DNA from: Thermoplasmatota archaeon
Lineage (GTDB): Archaea > Thermoplasmatota > E2 > JACPAO01 > JAHFTW01
NCBI GenBank assembly: GCA_041601615.1
Contig: JBFIHX010000005.1
Location: 40,774-104,773, forward strand
Direction of reading: 5' to 3'
DNA: 64,000 bases
Part shown: one piece after another, positions 10,232 through 61,003 of the stretch
Layout of the letters: the number at the start of each line of letters is the position of its first letter
Numbering within the stretch: position 1 is the first letter of the stretch
Position numbers and translations under genes: made by a program
The notes under the pieces: generated by a model
The model's input: the letters and a program-made list of their open reading frames with translations, nothing else
Database searches by the model: none
What the model was told of the DNA's origin: nothing

Positions 10232-10890
10232 TCACGATGACTGACGAATCTATCATTCAGACGGAAGAACAGCTCGCGGAGGTCGCCGCAGAGGAGACCG
10301 CACCCGAGGAGCCCGTGGTCGTCCTGCCCGAGACCCCCCTCTTTGGTAAGTACGGCGCCGACGGCATCGAGATCCGCGACGTGGGCCTGGCCCGCTACAT
10401 TCGCCTCGAACTGGTCGGCTTGCCCCACAGCAGTGCTCGCCACGCCAACCGACGCTTTGCCAAGCAACGCGTCAACATTGTCGAACGCTTGATCAACAAC
10501 GTCATGCGCTCGGCTGCGTACAACGGCAAGAAGGGCAAGGCGTACAAGGTCGTCGAGGACGCTTTCGAGCGCATCGCCGAGAAGACCAAGGACAACCCGA
10601 TCCAGGCCCTAATCCGCGCTGTGGAGCACTCCGCTCCTCGCGAAGAGGTCACCCGCCTGCGCTACGGTGGCATCAACGTCCCCAAGGCCGTCGATGTTTC
10701 GCCCATGCGCCGTCTCGACATCGCTCTGCGCAACCTCGCAAAGGGTGGACTGGCTGGCTCCCACAAGAGCACCAAGCCCGCCGCCCACTGCCTCGCCGAT
10801 GAGATCATGAAGGCCGCCAAGGGCGACCCCGGATCCTTCTCGGTCGGTAAGAAGGACGAGCTTGAGCGCGTCGCCAAGTCTGCTCGCTAA
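10228..10890 (+). CDS. rps7: 30S ribosomal protein S7 (uS7)
   Basis: Conserved uS7 sequence (...[35 protein letters not shown]...). GTG at 10228 overlaps the S12 stop; the first ATG is at 10237. Confidence 0.95.
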
Positions 10891-10960
10891 GCTCGCAGCC
10901 TAGTCGACGCACTCAAGCATGGCGTCTTCGACGCCCGCCAGAGTCGGCACCGCCGACTCC

Positions 10961-10996
10961 GGCGAATTGGAACGCGTCGCCAAGTCTGCACGCTAG
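10961..10996 (+). repeat. Echo copy of the rps7 3' end (encodes [11 protein letters not shown]) about 70 nt downstream of the real stop
   Basis: Real end is ...gacgagcttgagcgcgtcgccaagtctgctcgctaa ([11 protein letters not shown]). Echo is ggcgaattggaacgcgtcgccaagtctgcacgctag. Most differences are synonymous. Confidence 0.6.
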
Positions 10997-31045: not shown

Positions 31046-31140
31046 GGGGACACCGGCCAAGAAACGCCCACCGGGGGCCCGACGCCGCGCATGCGCGATG
31101 GTCGAGACCAGAAGGCTACCGCAACATCCGGGGATGCTAC

Positions 31141-31553: not shown

Positions 31554-33755
31554 ATGGGACGCAAGGAAGACAACATCAAGAAGGCCACCGAGATCATGCA
31601 CAATCTCGACGGCATCCGCAACATCGCCATCGCGGCGCACATCGACCACGGCAAGACGACGTTCTCCGACAACCTGCTGGCTGGCGCCGGCATGATGTCG
31701 GCGGACCTTGCTGGTGAACAGCGAGCCCTCGACTTCGACGAAGAAGAGCAAGCCCGCGGCATCACCATCAACTCCGCGTCCGCCTCGATGGTGCACACCT
31801 ACGAAGGCAATGACTACCTCATCAACCTCATCGACACCCCCGGTCACGTTGACTTTGGTGGCGACGTAACCCGCGCCATGCGCGCCGTCGACGGCTGCAT
31901 CATCCTGGTGTGCGCCGTGGAAGGCCCCATGCCGCAAACCGAGACCGTGGTGCGCCAGGCCCTTCGTGAGAAGGTCCAGCCGACCCTCTTCATCAACAAG
32001 GTTGACCGCCTCATCAACGAGCTGAAGGTCACGCCTGCCCAGATGCAAGAGCGCTTCGTCAAGCACATCAACAAAGTCAACCAGCTCATCAACGCCAACC
32101 TCCCGAAGGAATTCAAGGGCAAGTGGGGCGTTCGCATCGAGGACGGCACCGTCATGTTCGGCAGTGCCTACCACAACTGGGGCATGTCCGTTCCCTACAT
32201 GCAAAAGCACAAGATCGGCTTCGCCCGCATCTTCGAACTTTGCCACGCCAACGACGAGAAGCAACTCGCCAAGGAATGCCCCATCGCCGATGTTGTACTG
32301 GACACCGTGGTTCGCTCCCTGCCGAGCCCCAAGGTCGCCCAAGAATACCGCATCCGCCACATCTGGCACGGCGACCAAGACAGCACCGCAGGCATCGACA
32401 TGCGCGAAGCCAAGAGCAAGGGTGTCACGACCTTCATGGTCACCAAGATCATGATGGACCCCCACGCTGGTGAAATCGCCGTCGGCCGCCTCTTCTCCGG
32501 CGCCCTGACCCGCGGAGACGAACTGTTCATCGCCGGTACCAAGACCAAGAACCGCGTCCAGCAAGTCGGCATGATGATCGGCGCCGACCGTGTGGCCGTC
32601 GACAAGATCACCGCCGGCAACATCGCCGCCGTCACCGGCCTGCGCGATGCCATGGCCGGTATGACCCTCACCAGCGACACCGAGATGGAGCCCTTCGAGC
32701 GCATCATCCACGTCAGTGACCCCGTCGTCACCGTCGCTGTGGAAGCCAAGAACATGCGCGACTTGCCCAAGCTCGTCGACACCCTGCGCAGTGTAGCCAA
32801 GGGTGATCCCAGCCTGGTCCTTTCGATCAACCAGGAAACTGGCGAGAACCTGATGAGTGGCATGGGTGAACTCCACTTGGAAATCATTCAGCACCGCATC
32901 GAGCGCGACTACAAACTGGAGATCATCTGCTCCACGCCCATCGTCGTGTACCGAGAGAGTGTCTCCGCTACCAGCCCATACCCCTTCGAAGGCAAGTCCC
33001 CCAACCGCCACAACCGGTTCTACATCACCGCCGAACCCCTAGACGAGGCGATTGTCAAGGGCCTGCACGACAACACCATCCCGAGCGAAGCCAAGAAGCA
33101 CGCCAAGGAAATCGAGTCGATCATGTACAACGAGTACGGCTGGGAGAAGGACATGGCCAAGAAGGTCAAGGCCATCGACGGCACCTGCATGCTCGTGGAC
33201 GCCACCAAGGGTATCCAGTACCTGCACGAGACCTTCGAACTGATCACGGAAGGCTGGAAGGAAGTCATCAAGGCCGGCCCCCGCGCCGGCGAACCGGTCC
33301 AAGGCGTCCTGTTCAAGCTGACCGACGCCAAGCTCCACGAGGACGCTGTCCACCGCGGCCCCGCGCAAGTGATTCCCGCCGTGCGCAACGCCACCTACGG
33401 CGCCATGACCACGGCCAAGTCCATCCTGATCGAACCCATGCAGAAGGCGGTCGTCACGACCCCCGACGACGTCATGGGCAACGCCACGCGCGAGTTCCAG
33501 AGCCGCCGCGGCCTCATCCAGGACATGCAACAGGAGGGTGATTCCACCACCATCACGGCCAAGACCCCGGTCGCCGAGATGTTCGGATTCGCCGGCGCCA
33601 TCCGCTCCGCAACGGGCGGCCGCGCCATCTGGTCCACGGAAAACCTAGGCTTCGAAGTGCTCGACATGGCCCTTCAGGACAAGGTCACGCGCCAAATCCG
33701 CGAACGCAAGGGCCTCAAGCCCGACCCGTACCCGCCTGAGTATTACGCTGAGTGA
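31554..33755 (+). CDS. fusA: Elongation factor 2 (aEF-2)
   Basis: GTP-binding motifs AHIDHGKTT, DTPGHVDF, NKVD. Full-length 733 aa archaeal EF-2. Confidence 0.95.
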   Translation: MGRKEDNIKKATEIMHNLDGIRNIAIAAHIDHGKTTFSDNLLAGAGMMSADLAGEQRALDFDEEEQARGITINSASASMVHTYEGNDYLINLIDTPGHVDFGGDVTRAMRAVDGCIILVCAVEGPMPQTETVVRQALREKVQPTLFINKVDRLINELKVTPAQMQERFVKHINKVNQLINANLPKEFKGKWGVRIEDGTVMFGSAYHNWGMSVPYMQKHKIGFARIFELCHANDEKQLAKECPIADVVLDTVVRSLPSPKVAQEYRIRHIWHGDQDSTAGIDMREAKSKGVTTFMVTKIMMDPHAGEIAVGRLFSGALTRGDELFIAGTKTKNRVQQVGMMIGADRVAVDKITAGNIAAVTGLRDAMAGMTLTSDTEMEPFERIIHVSDPVVTVAVEAKNMRDLPKLVDTLRSVAKGDPSLVLSINQETGENLMSGMGELHLEIIQHRIERDYKLEIICSTPIVVYRESVSATSPYPFEGKSPNRHNRFYITAEPLDEAIVKGLHDNTIPSEAKKHAKEIESIMYNEYGWEKDMAKKVKAIDGTCMLVDATKGIQYLHETFELITEGWKEVIKAGPRAGEPVQGVLFKLTDAKLHEDAVHRGPAQVIPAVRNATYGAMTTAKSILIEPMQKAVVTTPDDVMGNATREFQSRRGLIQDMQQEGDSTTITAKTPVAEMFGFAGAIRSATGGRAIWSTENLGFEVLDMALQDKVTRQIRERKGLKPDPYPPEYYAE

Positions 33756-33786
33756 GGGCGCAGCCCGAACGGGTGTAATACTCAGG
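33735..33786 (+). terminator. 12-bp stem hairpin formed by the fusA 3' end (cctgagtattac) and a downstream complement (gtaatactcagg)
   Basis: Arms at 33735-33746 and 33775-33786 are exactly complementary, with the loop containing the stop codon. Confidence 0.35.
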
Positions 33787-33829
33787 AGCGAGGCCCTCGG
33801 GCCGAGCGTCGCTGCGGCCCACTTGTGGG

Positions 33830-33859
33830 CCGTATGCGCCTGAGTATTACGCTGGGTAG
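33830..33859 (+). repeat. Echo copy of the fusA 3' end (encodes PYAPEYYAG*), about 75 nt after the true stop
   Basis: Real end ccgtacccgcctgagtattacgctgagtga versus echo ccgtatgcgcctgagtattacgctgggtag. The echo could also pair with the 33775-33786 arm. Confidence 0.55.
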
Positions 33860-33900
33860 GCGAATTCGCGGCCCTGGGCGGCGGAATTGGACCGCCTCGA

Positions 33901-33947
33901 CCCACCCTTTTTCCTCCCTCTCCTCCCCCGCTCCTTCCCCCTTCGTT
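33901..33947 (+). terminator. C/T-rich tract between the fusA echo and aIF2-alpha
   Basis: cccaccctttttcctccctctcctcccccgctccttcccccttcgtt. Confidence 0.2.
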
Positions 33948-33974
33948 TATGACCAACCTGTCACTCGCCGAATC

Positions 33975-34775
33975 GTGGCGAAGCTGACAGAATTCCCGGA
34001 AGAGGGCGAACTGGTCGTCGGGACCGTGACGAAGGTCCAGAACTTCGGGGCGTTCATTGCACTGGAAGAATACCCGGGCAAGGAAGGCTTCGTTCACATT
34101 CGCGAAGTCGCCAGCGGCTGGGTCAAGCGCATCCGTGACTTCGTTCGCGAGCAGCAGCGCGTGGTCTGCAAGGTCCACGGCGTCAACTCCAAGAAAGGCC
34201 ACGTCGACCTTTCCCTGAAGTCCGTCAACGACCACCAGCGCCGCGAAACCATCCAGCGCTGGAAGAACGAACAGAAGGCAGACAAATTGCTCGAGATGTT
34301 CGCCGAGCGCATCGGCAAACCCGTCGAAGAAATCAGCGACCTCGTCGCCCGCCCCCTCCTCGACGTCTGGGAAAACCTGTACGATGCCTTCACCGAGGCC
34401 GCCGAATACGGCCACCAAGTGTTCATCGATGAGAAAATCGAAGCCGACTGGTCCGAGGAATTCGTCGCATTTGCCGCCGAAAACATCCAGGCCCAATTCG
34501 TCGAAGTACACGGCTTCGTGGACGTCCACAGCACCGCCCCCGACGGCGTCAAGGCCGTTCAAAAGGCGCTCACCGACGCGGAGAAATCCGAATTCGACGA
34601 CGTCATCATCAAAGTCACCTACAAGGGCGCTCCCCTGTACCGCATCGACGTACAGGCTCCCGACTTCAAAATCGGAGAAGAGCAACTCAAGAAGGCAGCC
34701 GACCGCGCGATTGCCATCATGACGAAGGCAGGCGGCACCGGCAGCTACCGCCGGGAACTCGAGGAGGACAAGTAG
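33975..34775 (+). CDS. eif2a: Translation initiation factor 2 alpha subunit (aIF2-alpha)
   Basis: S1 domain (EEGELVVGTVTKVQNFGAFIALEEYPGKEGFVHIREVASGW) plus a helical domain. Start unresolved: the frame is open back to an ATG at 33825, but its first 50 codons look non-coding. GTG at 33975 gives the canonical (M)AKLTEFPEEGE N-terminus. Confidence 0.85.
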   Translation: MAKLTEFPEEGELVVGTVTKVQNFGAFIALEEYPGKEGFVHIREVASGWVKRIRDFVREQQRVVCKVHGVNSKKGHVDLSLKSVNDHQRRETIQRWKNEQKADKLLEMFAERIGKPVEEISDLVARPLLDVWENLYDAFTEAAEYGHQVFIDEKIEADWSEEFVAFAAENIQAQFVEVHGFVDVHSTAPDGVKAVQKALTDAEKSEFDDVIIKVTYKGAPLYRIDVQAPDFKIGEEQLKKAADRAIAIMTKAGGTGSYRRELEEDK

Positions 34776-40361: not shown

Positions 40362-41711
40362 ATGACGCTGCGAACGCTCGGCTGCGGAGAAGTCCAACCC
40401 GCGCACTACGGCACCGAACAGACCTTCGCTGGCTGGGTCCACACCCTACGCGCCAAGGGCAACATCGCCTTTTTGGAACTGCGCGACCAAACCGGCACCG
40501 TCCAGTTCGTGCTCCTGAAGAAAATGCTCGCCGAGAGCGCCCCCGGCCTCTTTGAAACCCTCACCGACGCCAGCGCCGAGAGTGCCGTGAGCATTACCGG
40601 CCTCGTCAAAGAATCAGACAAAGCCAAAGCCGGCTTCGAAGTTCTGCCCACCGCCGGCACCGTCCTCAACAAAGCCCAGACCCCGCTTCCCATGGCACTT
40701 TGGGACGAAGAAATCCACACCGGCCTCGACACCCGCCTCGACAACCGGTTCCTGGACCTGCGCGGCCCCCGCAGCGCCGCCATCTTCCGCATCCGCAGCG
40801 AAGTGCTGCGCGCCGGCCGTGAATACTTCCAGAGTCAAGGCTTCACCGAGATCACCACCAGCAACATCATCGCCGCAAGCAGCGAAGGCGGCACGGACAC
40901 CTACAAAGTGGACTGGTTTGGCAAGGAATGCTTCCTTTCGCAGTCGCCGCAACTCTACAAGCAAATGATGATGGCCAGCGGCCTCGACCGCGTCTACGAG
41001 ATCGCCCGCTACTTCCGCGCTGAAAAGCACAACACCGTGCGCCACCTCAACGAAAGCACCGCCTTCGACCTGGAACTCGCCTGGATTGAGTCGGAAGAAG
41101 ACGTGATGAAGATCATCGAAGGCCTCCTGCACCACATCTGGAAGGCCGTCGTCGAAAACTGCCCCCAGCACCTTGAAGCCCTCGGCGCCGATGTCCCCGT
41201 TCCCGCCCTGCCCTTCATGCGCGTCGCCTACGAAGACGCCCTCGCCATCATCAACGTCCGCGCCGGCGACCGCCTCCACGCGCCGCTTGCATTCGGCGAC
41301 GACATCGGCACCGAAGCCGAAAAAATCCTCGGCGAAGCGATGCGCGAAGACGGCCACGACTTCTACTTCATCACCAAGTGGCCCCTTGCCCCCAAACCGT
41401 TCTACGTCATGCCCGAGGACGGCACCCAAAACAGCCGACTCTCGCGCAGCTTCGACCTGGACTACCGAGGCGTGGAGCTCATCAGCGGCGCTCAACGCAT
41501 CCACGACCCCGAGTTGTTGGAACAAGGGATTGTGCGCTGGGGCCTGGATCCCAAAGACTTCGGGGATTACCTGGAGTCGTTCAAGTACGGCATGCCGCCG
41601 CACGGTGGATGTGGGATCGGCATCGAGCGGATTCTGATGCAGATGCTGGGCCTCAGCAACATACGCGAAGCCATTCTCTTCCCCCGCGACTTAGACCGCG
41701 TGACGCCGTAG
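40362..41711 (+). CDS. aspS: Aspartyl-tRNA synthetase, archaeal type
   Basis: N-terminal anticodon-binding OB fold and class II motifs (FRAEKHNT..., GGCGIGIERILM). Confidence 0.9.
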   Translation: MTLRTLGCGEVQPAHYGTEQTFAGWVHTLRAKGNIAFLELRDQTGTVQFVLLKKMLAESAPGLFETLTDASAESAVSITGLVKESDKAKAGFEVLPTAGTVLNKAQTPLPMALWDEEIHTGLDTRLDNRFLDLRGPRSAAIFRIRSEVLRAGREYFQSQGFTEITTSNIIAASSEGGTDTYKVDWFGKECFLSQSPQLYKQMMMASGLDRVYEIARYFRAEKHNTVRHLNESTAFDLELAWIESEEDVMKIIEGLLHHIWKAVVENCPQHLEALGADVPVPALPFMRVAYEDALAIINVRAGDRLHAPLAFGDDIGTEAEKILGEAMREDGHDFYFITKWPLAPKPFYVMPEDGTQNSRLSRSFDLDYRGVELISGAQRIHDPELLEQGIVRWGLDPKDFGDYLESFKYGMPPHGGCGIGIERILMQMLGLSNIREAILFPRDLDRVTP

Positions 41712-41794
41712 GCGTTGCGCGGTTTGCGGGGAAGGAAGGCTGAGCGGTTGCTGAGGGCCGGGAGCGAGTCGGCGGCGAAGCCGACGGCTGGCGA

Positions 41795-41860
41795 CTCGGG
41801 TTGCCGAATATACGCGAGGCGATCCTGTTTCCGAGGGATTTGGATCGGGTTACGCCGTAG
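41795..41860 (+). repeat. Echo copy of the last 22 codons of aspS (encodes LGLPNIREAILFPRDLDRVTP*), diverged almost only at synonymous third positions
   Basis: Real end is ctgggcctcagcaacatacgcgaagccattctcttcccccgcgacttagaccgcgtgacgccgtag (41646-41711). Echo is ctcgggttgccgaatatacgcgaggcgatcctgtttccgagggatttggatcgggttacgccgtag. 17 of 22 codons differ, with a single amino-acid change (S to P). Confidence 0.6.
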
Positions 41861-48751: not shown

Positions 48752-48868
48752 GCTTGGTCGCGGCCGACGGGGGGGTCCTTTATGATGGTGACGGGAGCAC
48801 CCGGGGGCGGGGTTAGCTCGGGCCGCGGAGTTGTTCTTTTGTAGGGCCCCCTCCTCGCGCGCACCCAC

Positions 48869-50227
48869 ATGAGGAAGGCGACCGTCGGTTCCGTGCTCTT
48901 GGCGTTCCTGGCTCTTGCTGGCAACGCGGCCGCTCGTGGTGGCATGCCGGAACCCCAGACTGGGCGAGGCAAGATCATCGAGAGCATCTACTTCGATATC
49001 TATGTGGCCGGCATGATCACCTTCCTGGTGGTCATGGCGCTTCTTCTGTGGGCGATCATTCGCTACCGCGCCAGCAGTGGTGTGGGCCGCGCGACCTTTG
49101 AAAAAGAGCGCGAGAACCTCAAGATGGAGATGACTTGGATTGTCATTCCCCTCGGCGTTGTCCTTTGGGTCGGCGCCATCTCGTACGGTGGTCTCGTCAC
49201 CCTAGACGAAGGCACGGCGCCCGAGGATGTGTTCGTGGAGATCGGCATCGAGGGCAGCCAGTGGAACTGGGAAGCGCTCTACCCGGGTGGCGTCAGTGTC
49301 TTCTCGGATCCGGCGCCGGGAACGGGAGAGGTCGCAGACGACAAGGTGTTCGTGCTTCCTGCCGGCGTGGAGGTCCTGTTCAATGTTACAGGCCTCGATG
49401 TGATTCACTCGTTTGCCATCCAGGAATTCGACGTGGAGACGGGCAAACTGGGTACGCAGATCGGCATGGTCGACGCAAACCCCAGTGGCCCGCACCAGTA
49501 CAACCTCATGGTCGTGAACTTCGAGGAAGGCGAGTACCGCGTCCAGTGCAAGGAAATGTGCTTGAACCCCGGCCACGGCTACATGCGCGCCCGCATCATC
49601 GCTGTCCCGGTGGCTGAGTACAACGACTGGCTTGCCGACAAGCAACTGGAAGTGGGTGCCGACATCATCGAGCGCCTTGACCTGGAAGTCGTCGGTGGCG
49701 CCATCGCCGGACCCGAGGATCTTACCATCGTCAACGGAGCACGCATCATTGCCAAGGTGCACAACGGCGGCACGGCTGCGGAAACGGTCCACGTCGGTTC
49801 GGTCAACGTTACCGTGGCGCCTGGTGCAACCGAACCGCTCGTGTACAACACCGACAAGGCCGGCGAGTACGCCTTCACGACCGCCTCCGGCGGCAATTTG
49901 GCGTTCACTGTGGTGGATGCGGTGGTCGTTGACGTGCAACTGGACGACTTTTCAATCATCCCGTCGGACTGGAAGCTCGAGGGCGGCAAGACCTACCTCG
50001 TGCGCGTGCAAAACATCGGCGCAGCGCCCCACAACCTGTTCGTTGGCAACTACGACGAGGCCGGATCTGGAAAGAACAACGTGGTCGAGTGGAACTCCCT
50101 AAACGTGGGCGCCGGAGAGACCACTTCGTTCGTCATCACTCCTGGCCGCGACATGTCCTTCGAGACATGGTGCAATGTCCCGGGTCACCGCGACCTTGGC
50201 ATGTTTGGCGTGCTGGCGGCAAGCTAG
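48869..50227 (+). CDS. coxB: Cytochrome c oxidase subunit II fused to a C-terminal type-1 copper (plastocyanin/halocyanin-like) domain
   Basis: CuA motif (VIHSFAI...QCKEMCLNPGHGYM), then about 200 extra residues ending in a type-1 copper pattern WCNVPGHRDLGM. Confidence 0.8.
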   Translation: MRKATVGSVLLAFLALAGNAAARGGMPEPQTGRGKIIESIYFDIYVAGMITFLVVMALLLWAIIRYRASSGVGRATFEKERENLKMEMTWIVIPLGVVLWVGAISYGGLVTLDEGTAPEDVFVEIGIEGSQWNWEALYPGGVSVFSDPAPGTGEVADDKVFVLPAGVEVLFNVTGLDVIHSFAIQEFDVETGKLGTQIGMVDANPSGPHQYNLMVVNFEEGEYRVQCKEMCLNPGHGYMRARIIAVPVAEYNDWLADKQLEVGADIIERLDLEVVGGAIAGPEDLTIVNGARIIAKVHNGGTAAETVHVGSVNVTVAPGATEPLVYNTDKAGEYAFTTASGGNLAFTVVDAVVVDVQLDDFSIIPSDWKLEGGKTYLVRVQNIGAAPHNLFVGNYDEAGSGKNNVVEWNSLNVGAGETTSFVITPGRDMSFETWCNVPGHRDLGMFGVLAAS

Positions 50228-50270
50228 GGGCACAATCCGCTCGGTGTGGCCCCCGCGCTCGCTTGCTTTG

Positions 50271-50382
50271 GCCCTCCAGCCCTCTCCCGCTTCCTCTCTC
50301 CATCTCCCTTTCGCCCGCTCCCGCCCCCTCCATCCATCTCCCTCCCTTTTGTCTCTGTGCTCCTGTCGCTCCGCGGTTTCGG
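50271..50382 (+). terminator. Long C/T-rich low-complexity tract after coxII
   Basis: gccctccagccctctcccgcttcctctctccatctccctttcgcccgctcccgccccctccatccatctccctcccttttgtctctgtgctcctgtcgctcc. Confidence 0.2.
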
Positions 50383-50605
50383 CCACTGGGTGCGAGACGC
50401 CCATGGTGCCGCGCCCGTTCTGTTGTGTGCCCATTTGGCAGCCGTTCCAACATCGACTTCAAGGGTCGGGCGCCGTTTTGGAGTGGGTAGAATTTGTCGG
50501 TTGGCCCGAACCTATAGCAAATGGAGCACATACGAAAGGTAAACCTACTGTTGTGCACCCTTGGTATCCACTTGGCTTATACAACCAAGGTCGATTGCAT
50601 AAGAT

Positions 50606-51151
50606 ATGGTGCCAGGGACTTTTGATGAACTGCAACCCCCGAGTCTGACCGGAAGCACGTATGTGCAGGCAAGGACTCGGAAACAGGTCCTACAGGCAGT
50701 TCACAGCAGGCCAGGAATCAACAAAACGGAGCTGATGAAGCGATCCGGGCTTTCCTGGGGAACGGTCGGACACCACCTTCGCATGCTAGAACGGGACGGC
50801 CTCATCAACCTGGTGCGCGTCGGGCGCACCCTCCACGCGGCTCCTGTTTCCTTCACTCGAGGCATCGCCCGCGCGCCGGTTCTCACCTGTCCCGATGCCC
50901 GCCGCATCCTCAGCATCCTCATTGCTGAGCCATTTGCCAGAGGGGCCACCGATCTTGGCCGTGTGCTCGGAATGACCCGCAAACAGGTGCGCCGCCACTT
51001 GTACGAACTCGTGGCGGAAGGACTGGCAGAGAACGACGGCGCATACCACCCGCGCTACCGCTCCACGCGCACCGGCATGGACGCGGCCAACCACCTCGCC
51101 GTCGTGGATTTTTCATTCCGGGACGCCGTATCAGAAGTGATGGCGGTCTAG
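50606..51151 (+). CDS. Winged-helix transcriptional regulator (two ArsR/MarR-like wHTH repeats)
   Basis: ...INKTELMKRSGLSWGTVGHHLRMLERDGLINLV..., followed by a second HTH (LGRVLGMTRKQVRRHLYELVAEGL). Confidence 0.55.
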   Translation: MVPGTFDELQPPSLTGSTYVQARTRKQVLQAVHSRPGINKTELMKRSGLSWGTVGHHLRMLERDGLINLVRVGRTLHAAPVSFTRGIARAPVLTCPDARRILSILIAEPFARGATDLGRVLGMTRKQVRRHLYELVAEGLAENDGAYHPRYRSTRTGMDAANHLAVVDFSFRDAVSEVMAV

Positions 51152-51161
51152 GCTGAATCAA

Positions 51162-51492
51162 AAAGGGTCAATCGTTCGGGCCGGGTCGCGCCTAGCCCGG
51201 ACGACCTGTGGCGTTAGAACCAGCTGCTTAGGTCTCGTTGGACTGCGATTTCCAGCGATTCAGAACGACCCCCAAAGGGGTCGATCGTTTGGGCCGGTTC
51301 GCGCCATGCGCGACCGACCTGTGGCGTTAGAACCAGCTGCTTAGGTCTCGTTGGACTGCGAGTTCCAGCGATTCAGAACGACCCCCAAAGGGGTCGATCG
51401 TTTGGGCCGGTTCGCGCTCTGCGCGACCGACCTGTGGCGTTAGAACCAGCTGCTTAGGTCTCGTTGGACTGCGAGTTCCAGCGAATCGAAGC
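51162..51492. repeat. Three tandem 113-bp units; the distal unit is the authentic polB 3' end (last 18 codons plus flank), so the polB 3' terminus is tandemly triplicated
   Basis: ttagaaccagctgcttaggtctcgttggactgcga(g/t)ttccagcga(a/t)t recurs at 51214, 51327 and 51440. Copies differ by a few SNPs, and each contains short GC-rich palindromes. Fills the whole regulator-polB intergenic space. Confidence 0.85.
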
Positions 51493-54406
51493 CAAAGGCT
51501 CCCTTCACGTAATTTTCAACCATTTCCTTGTACCATGCCCAGTCCACGGTGTGCTCCTGTTTGTGCTCGATGATGTAGTCCACGGGCCACATGTACTCAA
51601 TGGGCTTGATGCCGGACTTGCGGGGCTTCTTGATTTGAAGATTGTAGCCGCTCGTGGCAAGTTTTTGCTTGGTGTCCGTCTGTACTTTTGGATCGTGGTA
51701 CAGGGGCAGCGGGTCCTTGCAGATGACGAATTTGAATTTGCGGCCCTGTCGGATCGGCTCTCCCAGTAGGTGCTCGACGGCGATGGTGCGCACGGCGAAC
51801 GTGGAGAGGGTGCCGTCGGGGTTCGGCTTGTAGCTACGCACCGGTTGGACACTCTGGCGAAGCACCAGATCCTCCCATGGCGTCTCGTGGATGTGCACGC
51901 CGCTCATGACGTCCTTGGTGGCGCGCTTGATGGCGGTCTTCATGCGCTCGCGGGCGTCTTCTTCCTCGGTCCAACTGGACACTTCCAGGAGCGCCTTTTT
52001 CATGATGGGGTGCAGGAGTTTCTGGGCGAGCGGCGCCTTGTCGCTGCCCTTGAAGTTGTTGCCCTTGGTCTCCATCACCAACTCGTCGCCCTTGGTTTTG
52101 AACTTGAGGTAGTTCTTGTGGACGATGAACACCATAGCGTCGTACTGTTCCGCCTCCAACTCGAAGTCCTCGTAGTCGAGCTCCTTGCGCCAGCGTAGAT
52201 TCGCGGTCTCGACGGCCTTGAGCGCCTTATCTGGGAGTGTAATCCAGGAATCAGCGTCTGGTAGCTCGTCGGCGCCCACGGCGGCGGCCAAGTGCGGTAA
52301 ATTGCCGACGGATTTGCTGCATCCAAGGTAGATGCCATCCGTGTCGCCATACACCACTCGGATGCCTTCCTTCTCGAAGTCCTCGCGGGTCTCGTGCAGC
52401 ACTTTTTGGCCAATGGTGGTGATGTTGGCGCCGCCCCAGACGTTGAATTGACGGCACGAGACGTTGACTGCCACGAGAATGCCGTGGGTGCCAGCGTTGC
52501 GGGCGGCCTTGAGGCTCGCGTAGGTCATGTCGAGGATACGGATCTGGTCCTTGTCGGCGCCCGTGCGTTTGGCCTCGGCGCGGGCGTTCTTGACCTTCTG
52601 AATGGTGTCCAAAATCCCCGTCATGGCGGAGTTGACGAGGCCGTCTTCGGCGCGGTGCTTGACGCCGATCATCCAGCCACGGCCCCGCGTGAACGTCTCT
52701 GCGGGCAGGGGTCGGCGCACTTCGTAGCGACCCGATTCCGCAAAGCCAGGCTCCAAGTCCATGAGCCAAATCCAATCGTCCACTTTCTCGCCCTTGCGCG
52801 CCGGCTGCACGGTGTCGGCGGTGAGGTTCTGGGCCTTGAGGATCGTCGGATACATGGCGCCCACGTCTGCTTCGACGACGTGGAACCAGGGGACGAAGTG
52901 GCTCTGGAGGTCGCTGTCGGGCTTCAGCGTCAGGCCGCCGACGATGGCATAGCCGTGCGGGTTGTCCTTTCCGCCGTTGGAGCGGCTGATGACGCCCGGG
53001 TGCTCGACCCAGAACGGCATTTCGGGGCCCTGCTTGGCCACACGCAAGAACTCTTTCTCGGCAGCCTCGGGGCCTGCGGTGAGCACGGCCTGGGACACGT
53101 CTTCGCGGGTGGGAAAGTCGTCGTAGGGAATGGCGCGTTGGACGCTGCGAGCAATGCTCTGGGCGCGGCACGTGGCGGGCATGATGCGGCGCTGGCGGCG
53201 GGCACGCAGGAAGGCCATGTGGTCCCACATTTTCGTATTGCCACCGGTCAAGAGGCTGTCCAGGGGCATGTTGACGGTGAAGCCGAGCGGGAGCGCCTGG
53301 GTAAGGAGAATTTGCGTAATGCCGAGTTGCTCTTGCACGTCGTGCTTGTTGTACTGGAGTGTCTTGGCGTCGAGGCCCATGTTGGCGGCCTCCATGTAGA
53401 CGCGGCCCGGCACCTCGACGCCGAGCCAGGGAGCCAAGCCCTTGAGCGTGAAATCGTCATGGAAGAAGTAGAATTTGCGCGCCGCGTGGAATGTGTCCAG
53501 CGTCGTGGGGTGAAACACGCTGATGTCGCTGCTGCTTCCGAAGTGGAAGGAACGGTCTTTGCGGCTCCAGGTGTCCGTGAATTCGTTGAACCAGGACCGC
53601 ATGCCCTTGCTCAGGAACTCCTGCTTTTGGTCGCGGGCCAAGAACGACCCGATGCGGTTGCGGATTTGCAGGTTGTCGAAGCCCAGAACGTTGTGGCCCG
53701 CAATGATGTCGTGCGTCACCGATTTTTGGGTGAACTGCATCAAGTTGTCCAGTTCATCATCCTCGTTGTGCGCCACCAATTGGACGACTTCCTTGCCGAG
53801 GTAGTCTTGGTCCATGTCCGTGAGCCGGAAGTCGAATGCCTCCGTTTCCAAGTCCTTGCTTGCTTCGTACTTGACGTCGAAATCCGCGTACCCAATGACG
53901 TCGATGGGGATCTCCTTCTTGCCCGAGCCGTACTCCGTGGTCTCGATGTCGTACGTCAAAACGGAGAGCTGTGCCGGCTTGCCTTTCGTGTCCCAGAGCC
54001 ACCAGTCATGCTCGGCGCCAAGGTCTCCAAGGGCGCGCTCGATGTAGGGAATGTCGTGCTCGGCTGTGTAGAAGCCGTGGTCCCAGAACAAGCGGTCGGA
54101 CACTTCCGGCACCCAGTACGGCCGCTTGCAGGTGACGGGAATCACCTTGCGGCTGCGGTTGTGGTCCCAAAACGACTGGTATGAGAGCGGTTCGCCCACT
54201 TCCAAGACTTTCGACAGGTCCTCTGAGTTCGGGTCGCCGCCGCGAGCCTCATCCACTGCCGCAAGCAACCGAGTGCGAGCATCCGCGACCGATTCGTCGC
54301 CCCGGGGCCATGCCAGGAAGGCCGGCGCGTGCAGTCCCGCCAGGGGTTGCGGGTCCCGTCCCTGCCAAAACAGGTGGGTGTTGGAGGCGTTCAGCAGCGG
54401 CTGCAC
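51440..54406 (-). CDS. polB: DNA polymerase B (family B replicative polymerase, no intein)
   Basis: Exonuclease and polymerase motifs (...DVGAMYPTILK..., ...YGDTDGIYL...). 988 aa. GTG start at 54406. Confidence 0.9.
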   Translation of the reverse strand: MQPLLNASNTHLFWQGRDPQPLAGLHAPAFLAWPRGDESVADARTRLLAAVDEARGGDPNSEDLSKVLEVGEPLSYQSFWDHNRSRKVIPVTCKRPYWVPEVSDRLFWDHGFYTAEHDIPYIERALGDLGAEHDWWLWDTKGKPAQLSVLTYDIETTEYGSGKKEIPIDVIGYADFDVKYEASKDLETEAFDFRLTDMDQDYLGKEVVQLVAHNEDDELDNLMQFTQKSVTHDIIAGHNVLGFDNLQIRNRIGSFLARDQKQEFLSKGMRSWFNEFTDTWSRKDRSFHFGSSSDISVFHPTTLDTFHAARKFYFFHDDFTLKGLAPWLGVEVPGRVYMEAANMGLDAKTLQYNKHDVQEQLGITQILLTQALPLGFTVNMPLDSLLTGGNTKMWDHMAFLRARRQRRIMPATCRAQSIARSVQRAIPYDDFPTREDVSQAVLTAGPEAAEKEFLRVAKQGPEMPFWVEHPGVISRSNGGKDNPHGYAIVGGLTLKPDSDLQSHFVPWFHVVEADVGAMYPTILKAQNLTADTVQPARKGEKVDDWIWLMDLEPGFAESGRYEVRRPLPAETFTRGRGWMIGVKHRAEDGLVNSAMTGILDTIQKVKNARAEAKRTGADKDQIRILDMTYASLKAARNAGTHGILVAVNVSCRQFNVWGGANITTIGQKVLHETREDFEKEGIRVVYGDTDGIYLGCSKSVGNLPHLAAAVGADELPDADSWITLPDKALKAVETANLRWRKELDYEDFELEAEQYDAMVFIVHKNYLKFKTKGDELVMETKGNNFKGSDKAPLAQKLLHPIMKKALLEVSSWTEEEDARERMKTAIKRATKDVMSGVHIHETPWEDLVLRQSVQPVRSYKPNPDGTLSTFAVRTIAVEHLLGEPIRQGRKFKFVICKDPLPLYHDPKVQTDTKQKLATSGYNLQIKKPRKSGIKPIEYMWPVDYIIEHKQEHTVDWAWYKEMVENYVKGAFGFDSLELAVQRDLSSWF

Positions 54407-54460: not shown

Positions 54461-55195
54461 TTACGGCGCCGGCGCCATGAGTCCGCCGCCCTCGTCGTCG
54501 TCATCTTCGCCAAAATCATCGTCTGGGTCTGGGTCTCCAAGTTCGCCTTGGGCATTGACAAACAAGCACGGGCCAAGGTCCTCTAGGTTCAACTCGTCGC
54601 CCAGCCGGCGGCCTGCCATGAGTTGGCAACGCGTAACACCCACAGGAGCGACGAAGTGGCCGCCATCGCGCAACTGCGACAACAGCATATGCGGAATCGT
54701 AGGAATCGCACAGGTGATGTAGATGGCATCGAACGGCGCCTCTGCCTCAATGCCCAGCGCTCCGTCACCTTGGATGACACGCACGTCGATGCCGGTTGAT
54801 TCAAGGTTGCGCGCCGCCCACTCGGCAAGCTCGGGCAAATATTCGATCGAAAACACCCGACCGGTTTCGCCAACGATTTGCTTGACCACGGCAGCGTGGT
54901 AGCCGACTCCGGTGCCGACCTCCAACACCTTCTGCCCTGTCTCCAACTGGAGTGCCGCAGTCATCATCGCCACCATGTGTGGCGCACTGATCGTCTGGCC
55001 AAAGCCCACAGGCAACGGCCGATCCTCGTATGCGTGCTCACGCAGTTCGGCGGGCAAGAACATGTGCCGGGGAACGGCCAGCATCGCTTCTTCCAGGCGC
55101 GGATCGGTCAGGTAGCCGTCCACCTCCAACCGCTGGAGCAAGGTTTCACGCTCCTCAAGTCGTTCGGCGGGCAGGGAGTCCTGCATAGGTACCAA
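54461..55195 (-). CDS. pcm: Protein-L-isoaspartate O-methyltransferase with an acidic C-terminal tail
   Basis: SAM-binding VLEVGTGVGYHAAV, PIMT family. C-terminal DPDPDDDFGEDDDDEGGG tail. Confidence 0.8.
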   Translation of the reverse strand: MVPMQDSLPAERLEERETLLQRLEVDGYLTDPRLEEAMLAVPRHMFLPAELREHAYEDRPLPVGFGQTISAPHMVAMMTAALQLETGQKVLEVGTGVGYHAAVVKQIVGETGRVFSIEYLPELAEWAARNLESTGIDVRVIQGDGALGIEAEAPFDAIYITCAIPTIPHMLLSQLRDGGHFVAPVGVTRCQLMAGRRLGDELNLEDLGPCLFVNAQGELGDPDPDDDFGEDDDDEGGGLMAPAP

Positions 55196-55268
55196 TGCGC
55201 ACCCGTTTGTTTTAGGGTGTTGGGGCCGGGCCGTCAGGGGCCTCGGTTTTGTCCCAATTTGCCAAGAT

Positions 55269-56486
55269 TCAGGCAGCGCGCAGGAGTTCCCGCACCTTCT
55301 CTTGCAGGACTCGGGTCGGCACGTCTGGCAACGACAGCAGTTGCGTCGTTCCGGCGTGGCCGCGACCGCTCATCTTGGAGTACAGGAACCCGGCGTCCTG
55401 GAGTTGCTTGAGGTACTTCCAGAACTGCGTGTGGGCACGGGGCTGCTCGCCGTGTTCCTCGCAGAGAATGTTGTATGCCTCCTCGACGCTACCGGTGGTG
55501 GCATAGGCGCCTTGGTCGCGTTCGAGTCGGTGCGCCAGCGCCATCAACACCAAGAGCGGATGCTTCTGGAGATTCTGGAGCTTGCTCGTGGTGACGACGC
55601 TGTAGGTGTATGCCTTGGCGGTACGCACATCGTCGGGCGTAACGCGGTCGCGCAGTTCATCGTCTGCGTTCTGCCCCGACTTGGACAGAAGCTCAATGGC
55701 AAGACGTGCGTCACCGGGGCCACTGCGGGCTTCGCCGGCCGCTTCTCCTGCGATGTCGGCAATCAGGCTGACGCAGTCCGGTTCCACGGAGCCGGGATGG
55801 AATGCTAGGTCCACGCGTTGCTGGATGATGGGCTCCATTTGGTCCTGGGTGTACGGCTGAACCTGGTAGGAATTGCTGCGCTTGAACGTGGAAAGTGCGG
55901 CTTCGTCCAAGAGTTCCAGGACGTTTTGCTGGCTTACCAGAATGAGGCTGATGCCGACCCAAGCTTGCCCGGTTTCGTCGTTGAACCGGGTCAAATCGTA
56001 CACGAGGTTGCTGCCGTCGGCGCGCAAGAGTGCGTCCACTTCGTCGAGGATGACGAGAAGGTGGCAGTCGCGGCGCTCCAAGTGGCGGCGCAAGTCGCGC
56101 ATCATCTCGCCGACGCTGAAGCCGCGCTCGGGGTAGTTTGGCTCGAAGTGGTTCAGGATGCCCAGCATGGCCAAGGACGCAGATTTGCGTCGGCGGCAAT
56201 TGACGTGGACCGATTCCATGCGCCGCCCTTTCTTGGCAAGCGCCCCTCCGAAGTCCTGGGCAAACCGCTTGGCCACCGCGGTCTTGCCGGTGCCCACGGG
56301 GCCCCAGACGAGCGCGTGCTCCCGCGTGCCTCCTTGCGTGAGGCCTCGGTAGGTGCGGGCAAGAAAGCGCATGGCGTCCTCGCGGTTGGGCAGTTCCTCG
56401 GGGACGTAGTCGAAATCGAGCTTGACGCGATCGCTGAAGACCGTGGGGCCGCCCAACTCCTCCTCGACGAGGCTCATCATTGGCAT
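55269..56486 (-). CDS. orc1: Orc1/Cdc6 replication initiator
   Basis: AAA+ Walker A (VWGPVGTGKTAVAK), Walker B (LVILDEVD) and a C-terminal winged helix. First ATG at 56486; GTG at 56504. Confidence 0.85.
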   Translation of the reverse strand: MPMMSLVEEELGGPTVFSDRVKLDFDYVPEELPNREDAMRFLARTYRGLTQGGTREHALVWGPVGTGKTAVAKRFAQDFGGALAKKGRRMESVHVNCRRRKSASLAMLGILNHFEPNYPERGFSVGEMMRDLRRHLERRDCHLLVILDEVDALLRADGSNLVYDLTRFNDETGQAWVGISLILVSQQNVLELLDEAALSTFKRSNSYQVQPYTQDQMEPIIQQRVDLAFHPGSVEPDCVSLIADIAGEAAGEARSGPGDARLAIELLSKSGQNADDELRDRVTPDDVRTAKAYTYSVVTTSKLQNLQKHPLLVLMALAHRLERDQGAYATTGSVEEAYNILCEEHGEQPRAHTQFWKYLKQLQDAGFLYSKMSGRGHAGTTQLLSLPDVPTRVLQEKVRELLRAA

Positions 56487-56585
56487 GGAGGCCGGCGGAG
56501 GCACTTGAGGTCATTCGTTCTGCTCCAGGGGTCAGCGAAAGCACTCGGGCCATGTCTCAAATGCCCGCGCCCCCTGCAAAGCCCA

Positions 56586-59475: not shown

Positions 59476-59859
59476 ATGGACATCCCAATGGCCGGTGCTC
59501 CCGCCGCCGCCCCGACTGCCAACTTCGCCCTCACGCCCGAGCAAAAGCAGGAGTGGGACGACCTCATCGCCAGCAACGACCTCGTGTTGTTCATGAAGGG
59601 CACCCCGGACGCGCCCCAGTGTGGCTTCAGTGCCCGCGCCGCCGGCGTGCTGCAGCACCTGGAGCGCCCCTTTGCGCACGTGAACATGTTCGCGCAGCCG
59701 GACCCGCGACAAGCCATCCAAGCCATTGCCGAGTGGTCCCAATTCCCGACCCTTCCGCAGGTCTACGTCAAGGGTGAACTCATCGGCGGCAGCGACATTG
59801 CGTTGGAGATGTTGGAAAGCGGCGAACTGAGTGAGATGCTGGGCGAAGCCCAGGATTGA
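59476..59859 (+). CDS. Monothiol glutaredoxin (CGFS type, Grx4/GrxD-like)
   Basis: CGFS active site (GTPDAPQCGFSARAAGVL) and a conserved C-terminal helix. Confidence 0.8.
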   Translation: MDIPMAGAPAAAPTANFALTPEQKQEWDDLIASNDLVLFMKGTPDAPQCGFSARAAGVLQHLERPFAHVNMFAQPDPRQAIQAIAEWSQFPTLPQVYVKGELIGGSDIALEMLESGELSEMLGEAQD

Positions 59860-60044
59860 GCGAGGGAGCCGCTTTCTTTGCTGCTGTGCCGCCAGGTGCA
59901 GCACGCTGGAGAGTGGCGAACTGGAGGATGTGTTGGGCGAAGCCCAGGATTGAGCGAGGAAGCCGCTTTCTTTGCTGCTGTGCCGCCAGGTGCAGCACGC
60001 TGGAGAGTGGCGAGCTGGAGGATGTGCTGGGCGAAGCCAGCTAA
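59860..60044 (+). repeat. Two tandem copies of about 94 and 91 bp, each ending with an echo of the grx 3' end (LESGELEDVLGEAQD* and LESGELEDVLGEAS*)
   Basis: The gene end ...ttggaaagcggcgaactgagtgagatgctgggcgaagcccaggattga recurs as ...ctggagagtggcga(a/g)ctggaggatgtg(t/c)tgggcgaagcc(caggattga/agctaa) at the end of each unit. Confidence 0.8.
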
Positions 60045-60100
60045 ATCCGTCCCCCGCCCGCGCCCGCAGCGACCAAGTACCCTTGCCGCAAGTGGGCGCC

Positions 60101-61003
60101 ATGCGTGGGTGGTCCACTGTTTGCATTGTCACGTCTGCAGTCGTCTTGTTTGCCGGTTGCATCGGGGCCGGCGATGCAGGGCCGGACCTGCCGGAACTTA
60201 CTTGGGCTCCAACTTACACGGTCACGACGACGCCATTGGAGCCGTTCGAACTCCAAGGAACCAACGTCTTCGGCTACGACGCGACACGCCCCTCCAACCG
60301 GGCACTGTTCGTGCAAAACGAAGATGACATGGCTAGGCGAAACGTCCGCGTCGACGGCACTTGGTACACCACCGATGAAGGCAGAGGATGGACCCGCTAC
60401 GCAAACCAAGTGGATCTGGACGCAAGCTCCCGAGCCCACCGCATCCAAACCTGGGACCTGCGCGGACTCGTCGAGTCGGCAAGCACCGCCGAATGGACGG
60501 GCTACGAACTGCTCACCTCCACGCGCGTCACCGCCAACGGCCGCACCGAGACCGTCACGGTTCACGCAGCACTGGACGGCGGGCGCGTGGTGTCTGCCTC
60601 CATCGACAGCCCGTTTGACCCGGAATCCCCCTACACGGTCGTCGCCGGCGGCACCCTGCCATTCTCCATTCGAGCCCCCGCCACTGCAACCTTGACACGC
60701 TCCGAAGCCAACGATGGAGACGCAACAGCTCGCTCCCGCCACGCCCAAATCATCGGCTGGATCGACGATTACCGCACCCAAACTGGCGCCTTGCCGCGCT
60801 CCATCGACGCCCAAACGCTCGCCGTTCAGCGCCTAGGAGCCGCTTGGCCAACCAATCCGTTTAGTAATGAAGCGATGCGGGACGCCGATTCCAGCGGACA
60901 TTTCATTTGGAAATATTGTTCTGCTCAAAACGCATCATACAGGGGCCTGGGATGGGATAAAAGTCCCATTGGTGAAAGTTTTGGCACAGGTTGTTCAAAT
61001 TGA
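60101..61003 (+). CDS. Secreted lipoprotein, hypothetical
   Basis: MRGWSTVCIVTSAVVLFAGCIG has a signal peptide with a lipobox Cys. No recognised catalytic motif. Confidence 0.5.
   Translation: MRGWSTVCIVTSAVVLFAGCIGAGDAGPDLPELTWAPTYTVTTTPLEPFELQGTNVFGYDATRPSNRALFVQNEDDMARRNVRVDGTWYTTDEGRGWTRYANQVDLDASSRAHRIQTWDLRGLVESASTAEWTGYELLTSTRVTANGRTETVTVHAALDGGRVVSASIDSPFDPESPYTVVAGGTLPFSIRAPATATLTRSEANDGDATARSRHAQIIGWIDDYRTQTGALPRSIDAQTLAVQRLGAAWPTNPFSNEAMRDADSSGHFIWKYCSAQNASYRGLGWDKSPIGESFGTGCSN

Follow-up and report, generated by a model that had tools for sequence, protein, structure and literature searches.

A triplicated polB gene end in a Thermoplasmatota archaeon belongs to a class of hairpin-associated duplications at gene 3' ends

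We analyzed a 64,000-nt stretch of DNA (hereafter, the window) from contig JBFIHX010000005.1 of a metagenome-assembled genome (MAG; GCA_041601615.1) of an uncultivated Thermoplasmatota archaeon, in which the 3' end of polB, encoding a family B DNA polymerase, is followed by a tandem array. We read this array as a stack of three copies of the polB gene end, each joined to a structured 3' flank, of which only one copy is live. The polB array is real and not an artefact, and it is one member of a lineage-wide class of duplications specific to gene 3' ends. In the explanation that we favor, to which we give an even chance of being correct, such duplications of gene ends are bounded by hairpins and are exchanged and homogenised by recombination, and the hairpins act in the 3' end of the mRNA. 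The results described below come from this one 64-kb window and from short loci of related genomes.

Tandem Repeats Finder (TRF) reported a 113-bp unit repeated head to tail in 2.9 copies over positions 51161-51484 (94% matches, no indels, score 564). A repeat search placed three in-register copies at 51161-51273, 51274-51386, and 51387-51499, in agreement with the original prediction, made from the sequence alone, of three near-identical 113-bp units. At no more than three mismatches, the 45-nt coding part of polB occurred three times and the core of the flank twice, compared with an expectation of 0 from dinucleotide shuffles. The head-to-tail copies are thus alike beyond chance, as is characteristic of a tandem repeat. 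As had also been predicted, the array fills the intergenic region, a 288-nt convergent spacer, between polB and the gene for a winged helix-turn-helix (wHTH) regulator. A contig from a different MAG assembly (JBFJJT010000626.1, GCA_041635295.1) showed 100% identity to window positions 50313-51694 with all three units included, so that the copy count of three agrees between two assemblies and the units are not confined to one of them. The Logan assembly of SRR29257386 was identical from 47606 to 51231 and broke 71 nt into the array, which is the behavior expected of a short-k assembler.

In polB sense, the unit consists of the last 15 polB codons (SLELAVQRDLSSWF-stop, 45 nt) and a 65-nt flank, after which comes GAA. 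The protein encoded by polB ends in GFDSLELAVQRDLSSWF-stop. Its last eight residues, QRDLSSWF, agree with the consensus of the PCNA-interacting peptide (PIP) box, Qxx[I/L/M]xx[F/W/Y][F/W/Y], which is typically located at the extreme C-terminus (PMC3504372). These residues were invariant across every PolB relative inspected, and binding to PCNA is predicted from this motif. The two copies that are not joined to polB had been described as pseudo-C-termini with 1–3 single-nucleotide changes; this holds for the distal copy, which has one change (L to I) in its 45 coding nucleotides, and does not hold for the middle copy, which has none.

Each complete flank contains two GC-rich hairpins, which correspond to the GC-rich palindromes noted previously. 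In unit 3, the unit joined to polB, hairpin 1 (51405-51432) consists of a 12-bp stem, interrupted by one bulge, and the 3-nt loop AGA; in hairpin 2 (51376-51399), the stem CGACCCC/GGGGTCG carries a 4-nt loop. The flanks of units 2 and 3 were identical except for the loop of hairpin 1 (ATG versus AGA), and hairpin 1 can be described as a palindrome with invariant 12-bp arms and a variable 3-nt center. The predicted folding energy of the unit 3 flank was -37.2 kcal/mol (z -4.9), and the z score of the unit 2 flank was -4.1. No other of the 31 gene 3' flanks of the window was as stable as that of polB, which also lay outside the range of 400 random 65-mers. In the distal unit 1, hairpin 1 is restructured and hairpin 2 lacks its 3' arm, and this flank is far more diverged than the coding part of the same unit. 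The array has a GC content of 59-60%. A consensus scan detected no bacterial-type intrinsic terminator in the array, hairpins 1 and 2 being followed by CAAACG and TTCTGAA, respectively. Archaeal termination depends on U-tracts with aCPSF1 (PMC8716108); a check for runs of at least five T residues downstream of polB yielded one T5 tract, at 51160-51164 in the distal unit 1. This is the sole T5 of the array in polB sense and sits 7 nt beyond a weak hairpin. In the complete units 2 and 3, the longest run is T3, inside a hairpin loop. The coordinates of the array and of the related loci described below are summarized in Table 1.

Table 1. Positions of the polB array, its parts, and the related loci in the window
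Feature	Position	Strand	Basis
polB, family B DNA polymerase, 988 aa, GTG start	51440..54406	-	ORF and translation; Pfam DNA_pol_B and exo domain; homologues are Thermoplasmatota PolB
PIP-box-like C-terminus QRDLSSWF (Qxx-L-xx-W-F); stop codon at 51440-51442	51443..51466	-	sequence, PIP consensus
Unit 3, coding part X, live: last 15 codons SLELAVQRDLSSWF-stop	51440..51484	-	
Unit 3, flank, 65 nt: hairpin 1 and hairpin 2	51375..51439	-	RNA fold; covariance model match, 93.4 bits
Unit 2, relic coding part: GAA (remnant of Glu codon) and SLELAVQRDLSSWF-stop, 45/45 identical to live copy, without start codon	51327..51374	-	
Unit 2, flank: hairpin 1 (loop ATG) and hairpin 2	51262..51326	-	
Unit 1 (distal), relic coding part: GAA and SLEIAVQRDLSSWF-stop, one change, L to I	51214..51261	-	
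Unit 1, flank, degenerate; overlaps wHTH stop codon	51149..51213	-	covariance match, 65 bits; fold z -0.66
Two-domain winged-helix (ArsR/MarR-like) regulator, convergent neighbor	50606..51151	+	Pfam
Glutaredoxin array	59813..60044	+	TRF 59813-60038, 94-bp period x2.4, 92%, score 387; fold z -5.2
AspRS end LGLSNIREAILFPRDLDRVTP-stop, inverted copy (~40-bp hairpin across stop), small hairpin, relic LGLPNIREAILFPRDLDRVTP-stop	41646..41860	+	z -5.9
aEF-2 end PYPPEYYAE-stop, stop-straddling hairpin, small hairpin, relic PYAPEYYAG-stop	33726..33859	+	z -5.2
Ribosomal protein uS7 end, stop-straddling hairpin, small hairpin GAGTCGGC-ACC-GCCGACTC, relic	10855..10996	+	z -5.8

The closest PolB relative (locus L001, GCA_041623015.1), with 91% amino acid identity and 82% polB nucleotide identity, also carries a tandem array at the end of polB, with a 143-bp period. 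Its unit comprises 26 codons (ENYVKGAFGFDSLELAVQRDLSSWF-stop) and a 65-nt flank in which both hairpins recur, in at least 2.4 copies; the array lies within a single MEGAHIT k=141 contig, which ends inside it. Hairpin 2 of L001 is an 11-bp stem that ends at flank nucleotide 65. In both lineages, the flank measures exactly 65 nt, and the next codon is the Glu codon of VENYVKG, which is GAA in the window and GAG in L001, in each case as in the polB of the same genome. Because the flank length and the Glu codon after the flank are the same, the window unit amounts to an L001-type unit minus 30 nt, encoding NYVKGAFGFD. This agreement indicates that the junction between flank and coding part is shared by the two lineages, having been either inherited or set by the hairpin base.

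The third codon positions of polB in the window and L001 were 61% identical overall, 63% identical in codons for the same amino acid, and 55% identical in the last 100 codons. The core of the flank showed 5 differences in 52 nt (90% conserved), compared with 37-45% difference at the synonymous positions of polB (P <= 8e-6). At flank positions 8-64, all six differences between the window and L001 fell in loops, the bulge, or the spacer (P = 2.2e-4). These comparisons show that the hairpin flank of polB is constrained. Seven further, more distant PolB loci, L002/L003 (82%), L004, L005, L012, L013, L024, and L025, have a single gene end without a repeat. A degenerate pattern of the PolB C-terminus yielded only two true matches in JGI metagenomes, both of them distant, single-copy PolB ends, and a protein search with the last 160 residues of PolB retrieved only fragments with at most 70% identity, of which the two inspected had no array.

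The flank itself does not belong to a dispersed family. Across the window and 16 other loci in which the unit was sought, a covariance model of the flank matched only array copies. Among 185,579 species genomes (GTDB), the pattern of hairpin 2 occurred only at polB of L001, apart from one chance bacterial match. The many scattered copies that define dispersed palindromic elements, such as repetitive extragenic palindromes and bacterial interspersed mosaic elements (REP/BIME) or miniature inverted-repeat transposable elements, were thus not found for the polB flank. No Rfam family matched positions 50000-52500 at E <= 1, and none matched at the gathering score across the whole window.

Comparison of the last 60-90 nt of each open reading frame (ORF) of at least 80 aa with the 450 nt downstream, together with a TRF run on the whole window, revealed gene-end duplications at no fewer than five places, namely, polB and the genes for glutaredoxin, aspartyl-tRNA synthetase (AspRS), aEF-2, and ribosomal protein uS7. 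Relics were found 3' of 5 of 32 genes, and the 5' control revealed none upstream of 31 genes. Behind the monothiol (CGFS-type) glutaredoxin gene (59476..59859; Pfam Glutaredoxin), the array starts 47 nt before the stop codon, and its unit consists of the last 15 codons, the stop codon, and a 47-nt hairpin flank. The two glutaredoxin relics, LESGELEDVLGEAQD-stop (59906-59953) and LESGELEDVLGEAS-stop (60000-60044), retain stop codons and coding-like sequence; the flanks are identical at 46 of 47 nt, with 9 differences in 48 nt of the coding parts. The genes for AspRS, aEF-2, and uS7 end at 41711, 33755, and 10890, and each is followed by a single relic, at 41795-41860, 33830-33859, and 10961-10996, respectively, located 70-83 nt past the real stop codon. 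At these three loci, most differences between relic and live end are synonymous, and they include changes of one stop codon to another (TGA or TAA to TAG). The AspRS relic keeps its stop codon and differs from the live copy at 21 of 66 nt, with many transversions, corresponding to 16 synonymous codon differences and 1 nonsynonymous difference.

A related genome with 82% PolB identity (L002; GCA_028289805.1, JANQNI010000320.1) has no polB array. At positions 820-1135 of L002, three relic ends follow an unrelated 267-aa gene, whose live end is EFARTNAFWRR-stop; the first relic reads DAARTNAYWRR-stop, and the second and third read ATAWTNAYWRR-stop, with a 93-bp period for these last two. The live end and the first relic each fold into an almost perfect stop-straddling hairpin (z -8.9 and -7.5, respectively). 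The relic scan of more distant Thermoplasmatota loci and of unrelated control loci revealed nothing comparable.

Two observations were made on sequences within these loci. The small hairpins before the uS7 relic (10943-10957) and the AspRS relic (41768-41785) have common arms, GAGTCGGC and GCCGAC, with 3 matches in the window versus 0.12 expected. These arms may be a common motif of relic junctions, the sample being too small to judge; an element shared by all five flanks was rejected, since only weak common words such as this one were found, which are insufficient to define a family. In addition, the longest ORFs at 59972..61003 (+, TTG at 59972) and 33825..34775 (+) start inside the glutaredoxin and aEF-2 arrays, and the start at 33825 overlaps the aEF-2 relic. 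The true starts of the genes downstream of these two arrays probably lie further downstream.

The flanks behind AspRS, aEF-2, uS7, glutaredoxin, and the L002 gene open with an inverted copy of the last 15-45 nt of the gene itself. The live end of each of these five genes forms a long predicted hairpin (z -5.2 to -8.9) that carries the stop codon close to its apex; after it come a small hairpin and then the direct relic. The relic ends at AspRS, aEF-2, and uS7 showed no significant structure (z ~0). Among 429 ORF ends of the window, the best three stop-straddling inverted repeats were exactly those of AspRS, aEF-2, and uS7. The number of base pairs across the stop codon in minimum free energy folds did not separate the gene ends from internal controls; folding energies and inverted-repeat alignments did. 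The sense strand folded better than the antisense strand in seven of eight gene-end hairpins. Each sense fold contained 1-4 G-U pairs, and six of seven antisense folds contained none (the antisense fold of the window polB flank had three). At every locus, the relic starts no more than ~10 nt from the 3' base of a GC-rich hairpin.

A direct-inverted-direct arrangement was present at AspRS, aEF-2, and uS7, was indicated by folding only at glutaredoxin and L002, and was not found at polB, where the flank has no inverted copy of the coding end and only a 4-bp stem straddles the stop codon. Template-switch models yield direct-inverted-direct copies at short palindromes, on a larger scale (PMC4689423, PMC5677150). 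The loci described here resemble the inverted triplications ascribed to template switching, such as the tandem inversion duplications of Salmonella, origin-dependent inverted-repeat amplification (PMC4689423), and rad27 events (PMC5677150), in this arrangement of copies and in having junctions at small hairpins or at a hairpin base. They differ from such triplications in size (~100 nt here versus kb to Mb), in their restriction to gene 3' ends, in the synonymous differences of the relics, and, at polB, in the lack of an inverted copy.

The differences between live ends and relics follow the reading frame. In L001, the live polB end and its two relics differed at 7 of 78 coding nucleotides, and all seven differences were synonymous and at third positions (P ~2.5e-5 for random substitutions); their flanks differed at three of the first 8 nt and were identical over the remaining 57 nt. 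When the seven live/relic or relic/relic pairs that differ were pooled, the numbers of differences at the first, second, and third codon positions were 11, 5, and 36, respectively, and 36 codons differed synonymously versus 8 nonsynonymously. Because neutral decay would change all codon positions, the live and relic copies must have diverged under coding selection. Judged by this codon pattern, the relics must be displaced functional gene ends and not decayed slippage products.

The polB relics contain no start codons, and their frame moves by 2 with every 113-nt step. In the window, the relic frame stays open as far back as polB, and in L001 it is closed by TAA nine codons upstream. At AspRS, aEF-2, and uS7, the relic frames are closed within the flank, which excludes translation of these relics by read-through or frameshifting. 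The live-relic offsets were 94, 104, 106, 113, 143, and 149 nt. Translated mini-ORFs carrying the PIP box, or recoding, were rejected since there are no starts, no conserved open frame, and no offset divisible by 3. Of the three copies, only the one joined to polB is translated, and the two others are untranslated relics, consistent with the original assignment of the authentic C-terminus to the unit nearest polB; the PIP-box codons in the relics are passengers.

These results can be accommodated by the following sequence of events. A hairpin would set the downstream junction of a duplication or insertion through template switching, fork stalling, or a hairpin-protected donor DNA end; this is proposed because the relics begin so close to the 3' base of a hairpin. 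A segment consisting of a gene end and its hairpin may then be swapped between diverged lineages by homologous recombination, with the conserved coding sequence serving as the homology arm, and the exchange would either displace the resident gene end or leave it behind as a relic. Such import would account for the synonymous differences, for the native-looking flank without structure that follows the single relics, and for the abrupt boundary a few nucleotides past the stop codon at L001 and glutaredoxin. Arrays would be expanded and homogenised by unequal recombination or gene conversion, as may have occurred for units 2 and 3 of the window polB array, relics B and C of L001, and relics 2 and 3 of L002.

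The most likely role of the hairpins is that of a 3'-end structure in the sense transcript, where they would stabilize the mRNA or form a barrier between convergent genes. REP/BIME sequences of bacteria are similar in that they are GC-rich hairpins past genes, often between convergent genes and sometimes in tandem, that act in the mRNA 3' end; unlike the locus-specific hairpins described here, they form one family with hundreds of copies per genome and contain no coding sequence. Transcription of polB may read through the array and probably ends at the distal T5, which would fit the U-tract-dependent termination of archaea (PMC8716108). The lone polB-sense T5 lies at the distal array end, where an aCPSF1 U-tract terminator would be expected; known archaeal termination, in contrast to the arrangement seen here, needs no hairpins, and the complete polB units have only T3 in a hairpin loop.

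Several points weigh against the explanation by hairpin-bounded, recombining gene ends. The four related loci in the window are each known from one assembly. The window polB relics match the live copy fully or almost fully, and the synonymous argument therefore rests on L001 and the related loci. The polB hairpins are self-contained, without an inverted copy, and may have arisen by a somewhat different route. No compensatory double substitutions were found in the polB hairpins between the window and L001, and the hairpin structure is consequently supported solely by the location of the changes and by the G-U pairs. The junction shared with L001 could be a hairpin-directed breakpoint that was hit twice, not a product of common ancestry. 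No donor lineage was identified for the proposed import by recombination, and the RNA role of the hairpins and the end point at T5 are deduced from sequence features.

A more specific possibility, which we regard as tentative and rather doubtful, is that the gene end plus hairpin segments of ~100-150 nt are cassettes that arise through template switching at hairpins and are then passed between diverged genomes by homologous recombination, in which the conserved final codons of housekeeping genes act as homology arms, each arrival leaving a relic. If this were true, they would constitute an undescribed class of 3'-end elements, either selfish or selected for a function in the mRNA 3' end, and a fossil record of recombination between lineages, and the polB array would be a multi-copy example persisting over genus-level divergence.

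Of the remaining explanations, replication slippage or unequal crossing-over at polB comes closest, although we consider it unlikely. It would make the array a neutral polB-specific minisatellite, without a function or a mechanism common to other loci, that is bound to decay or be lost. The near-identical head-to-tail copies without indels, the untranslated relics, and the single gene end in the seven other PolB relatives are as expected of a minisatellite. The same architecture, however, recurs at four other genes within 64 kb and in two related genomes, and the codon-periodic differences between live ends and relics would not be expected of neutrally decaying slippage products. Furthermore, conservation between lineages is far stronger in the flank than at synonymous sites, and the flank/coding junction is identical in a lineage at 82% polB nucleotide identity. 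The array has features in common with intergenic minisatellites, including variable-number tandem repeats and the mycobacterial interspersed repetitive units (MIRUs). In both, units of tens to ~100 bp are arranged head to tail between genes and touch or overlap the ends of those genes; unequal recombination occurs readily in them, and assemblies tend to break there. MIRU-type units form a dispersed family, whereas the unit described here is locus-specific and derives from the last codons of the adjacent gene and their own hairpin flank. Among the causes proposed in the original prediction, a slippage-generated terminator array was the nearest; it is incomplete in that the unit is a gene end with its flank, recurs at four genes and in two related genomes, and shows synonymous differences.

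An attenuator-like RNA switch, which we consider quite unlikely, would have the relic end X' and the live end X compete for the flank, so that translation of the last codons controls the downstream hairpin and thereby termination or decay. The inverted copies of the last codons in the flanks of AspRS, aEF-2, uS7, glutaredoxin, and L002, with their long hairpins across the stop codon, would suit such a switch, as would the glutaredoxin flank segment that is able to pair with the upstream or the downstream copy and the G-U pairs favoring sense RNA. The polB locus, with neither an inverted copy nor more than the 4-bp stem across its stop codon, does not fit this model. The many differences between the live and relic ends of AspRS (21/66 nt, with transversions) would weaken dual pairing, and the relic ends of AspRS, aEF-2, and uS7, with z scores of ~0, also argue against it.

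Integrase-mediated insertion of mobile elements into gene 3' ends, as in tRNA genes and in aEF-2, the casposon target, yields displaced ends with coding-like sequence and a stop codon. On this basis, the arrays would be attachment-site relics, left by elements that target gene 3' ends and bring a replacement end, with repeated integration and loss stacking the attachment-site copies. The displaced coding-like ends with stop codons fit such insertion, aEF-2 is among the affected genes, and the loci share with archaeal integration sites an untranslated 3' end displaced past an intact gene with coding-like differences. Archaeal integration sites nevertheless differ from these loci, where the copies stand only 47-95 nt apart (65 nt at polB) with neither an element nor an integrase nor terminal inverted repeats in between, and many genes are targeted; five genes would require five target specificities. 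The window ORFs scanned included none for an integrase, a transposase, a reverse transcriptase, Cas1, or any other Cas protein, the unit had no match to viral contigs, plasmids, or phages, and no tRNA genes were found. We therefore regard this explanation as very unlikely, and the earlier suggestion of tandem attachment-site relics was not supported.

A DNA-level protein-binding array, consisting of operators for the adjacent wHTH regulator or of origin-type repeats tied to orc1, is highly improbable. The palindrome of hairpin 1 with its invariant arms and variable 3-nt center would be compatible with protein binding, and the array sits between the wHTH gene and polB, 3.8 kb from orc1 (55269..56504), in line with the distance of about 4 kb noted earlier. 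However, neither the wHTH promoter nor the remainder of the window contains the palindrome of the polB unit. The adjacency of the wHTH gene and polB is not conserved: the wHTH homologues, with 56-66% identity, are all placed in other gene contexts, and no close orthologue was present in a collection of 5.8 billion proteins, in which the best match had 66% identity. No AT-rich unwinding element was found next to the array or orc1, the unit includes coding sequence, and similar arrays lie behind the genes for glutaredoxin, AspRS, aEF-2, and uS7, which are unrelated to replication. The covariance model found no further copy, and the G-U pairs favor RNA. Accordingly, neither the predicted binding array for the wHTH regulator nor the predicted relation to replication was upheld, the latter because an AT-rich unwinding region is missing and translation and redox genes far from orc1 are affected. 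The tempting link between the array and a replication origin was removed as unsupported. As a candidate archaeal origin, the array was rejected on its 59-60% GC content, the coding sequence inside it, the 3.8-kb distance from orc1, and the lack of an AT-rich stretch; the comparison with the origin recognition box consensus was an informal one.

An assembly artefact, in the form of a repeat expansion or mis-joined strain variants, is barely credible: the source is a MAG, contigs of relatives break in or beside arrays, and the single relics of AspRS, aEF-2, and uS7 resemble an undetected overlap between contigs of two strains, but a second assembly contains the identical polB array, its distal copy is distinct in sequence, the junctions in the single k=141 contig of L001 must be spanned by reads because copy-specific variants lie closer together than k=141, and the glutaredoxin and L001 flanks are near-identical and their coding parts diverged, which is the opposite of a strain mis-join.

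Other known systems were also compared. A CRISPR array was rejected, as it had been in the original prediction, since the repetition extends over the whole 113-nt period and leaves no unique spacers. Diversity-generating retroelements, with their variable and template repeats, are similar in having a near-copy of the 3' coding end of a gene nearby and a hairpin after the gene end; they were rejected since no reverse transcriptase was found among the window ORFs scanned, the differences, synonymous changes at third positions, are of all kinds and not adenine-specific, and the targets are housekeeping genes. An integron attC site was rejected as no RYYYAAC/GTTRRRY pair was found by eye. Inspection by eye also revealed no box motifs of C/D-box small RNAs, and no tRNA-like structure was found.

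Upstream of polB lie a gene for a PCMT methyltransferase and orc1. The order orc1, PCMT methyltransferase, polB (window 54461-56504, -) is kept in L004 and L005, whose PolB identity is 72-73%. Synteny breaks exactly at the 3' end of polB, which is followed by a small ORF and an EVE-domain gene in L004 and L005, by a membrane protein gene in L002, and by the wHTH gene in the window. The wHTH sequence itself is present on one NCBI MAG contig and one Logan contig (two contigs looked up). A C/T-rich low-complexity tandem repeat (50279-50343, +; 34-bp period x1.9) is located downstream of a cupredoxin-like gene, and after it, just upstream of the wHTH gene, 50476-50625 is among the most AT-rich stretches of the window, with 45% GC. 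Elsewhere, a giant ORF (16907-31060, -) encodes 4717 aa with only a weak Pfam match to a right-handed beta-helix and presumably represents a surface protein of huge size. Overlapping this ORF are many low-complexity shadow ORFs rich in Pro, Thr, and Ser. A MazF/PemK-type toxin gene (36507-36863, -) was found amid an otherwise housekeeping region.

Literature searches for a described equivalent of hairpin-bounded gene-end relics found nothing specific. The gene-end relics beside stop-straddling hairpins are a variant of known duplication processes, one without a description in the literature searched. On its own, the triplication at polB is a modest oddity, and the weight lies in the recurrent pattern. 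Approximately one in six genes of the window has a hairpin-bounded duplicate of its 3' end, and these are among the most conserved genes (PolB, aEF-2, AspRS, uS7, and glutaredoxin). The pattern is found in three related genomes, and the relics keep their amino acid coding and stop codons. If confirmed genome-wide, it would serve as a warning for annotation, since spurious ORFs are called from inside such arrays and assemblies break there. It would also represent an unusual architecture of mRNA 3' ends, with long stop-straddling hairpins, in an uncultivated clade, and a direct sequence record of the exchange of gene ends between diverged archaeal lineages.

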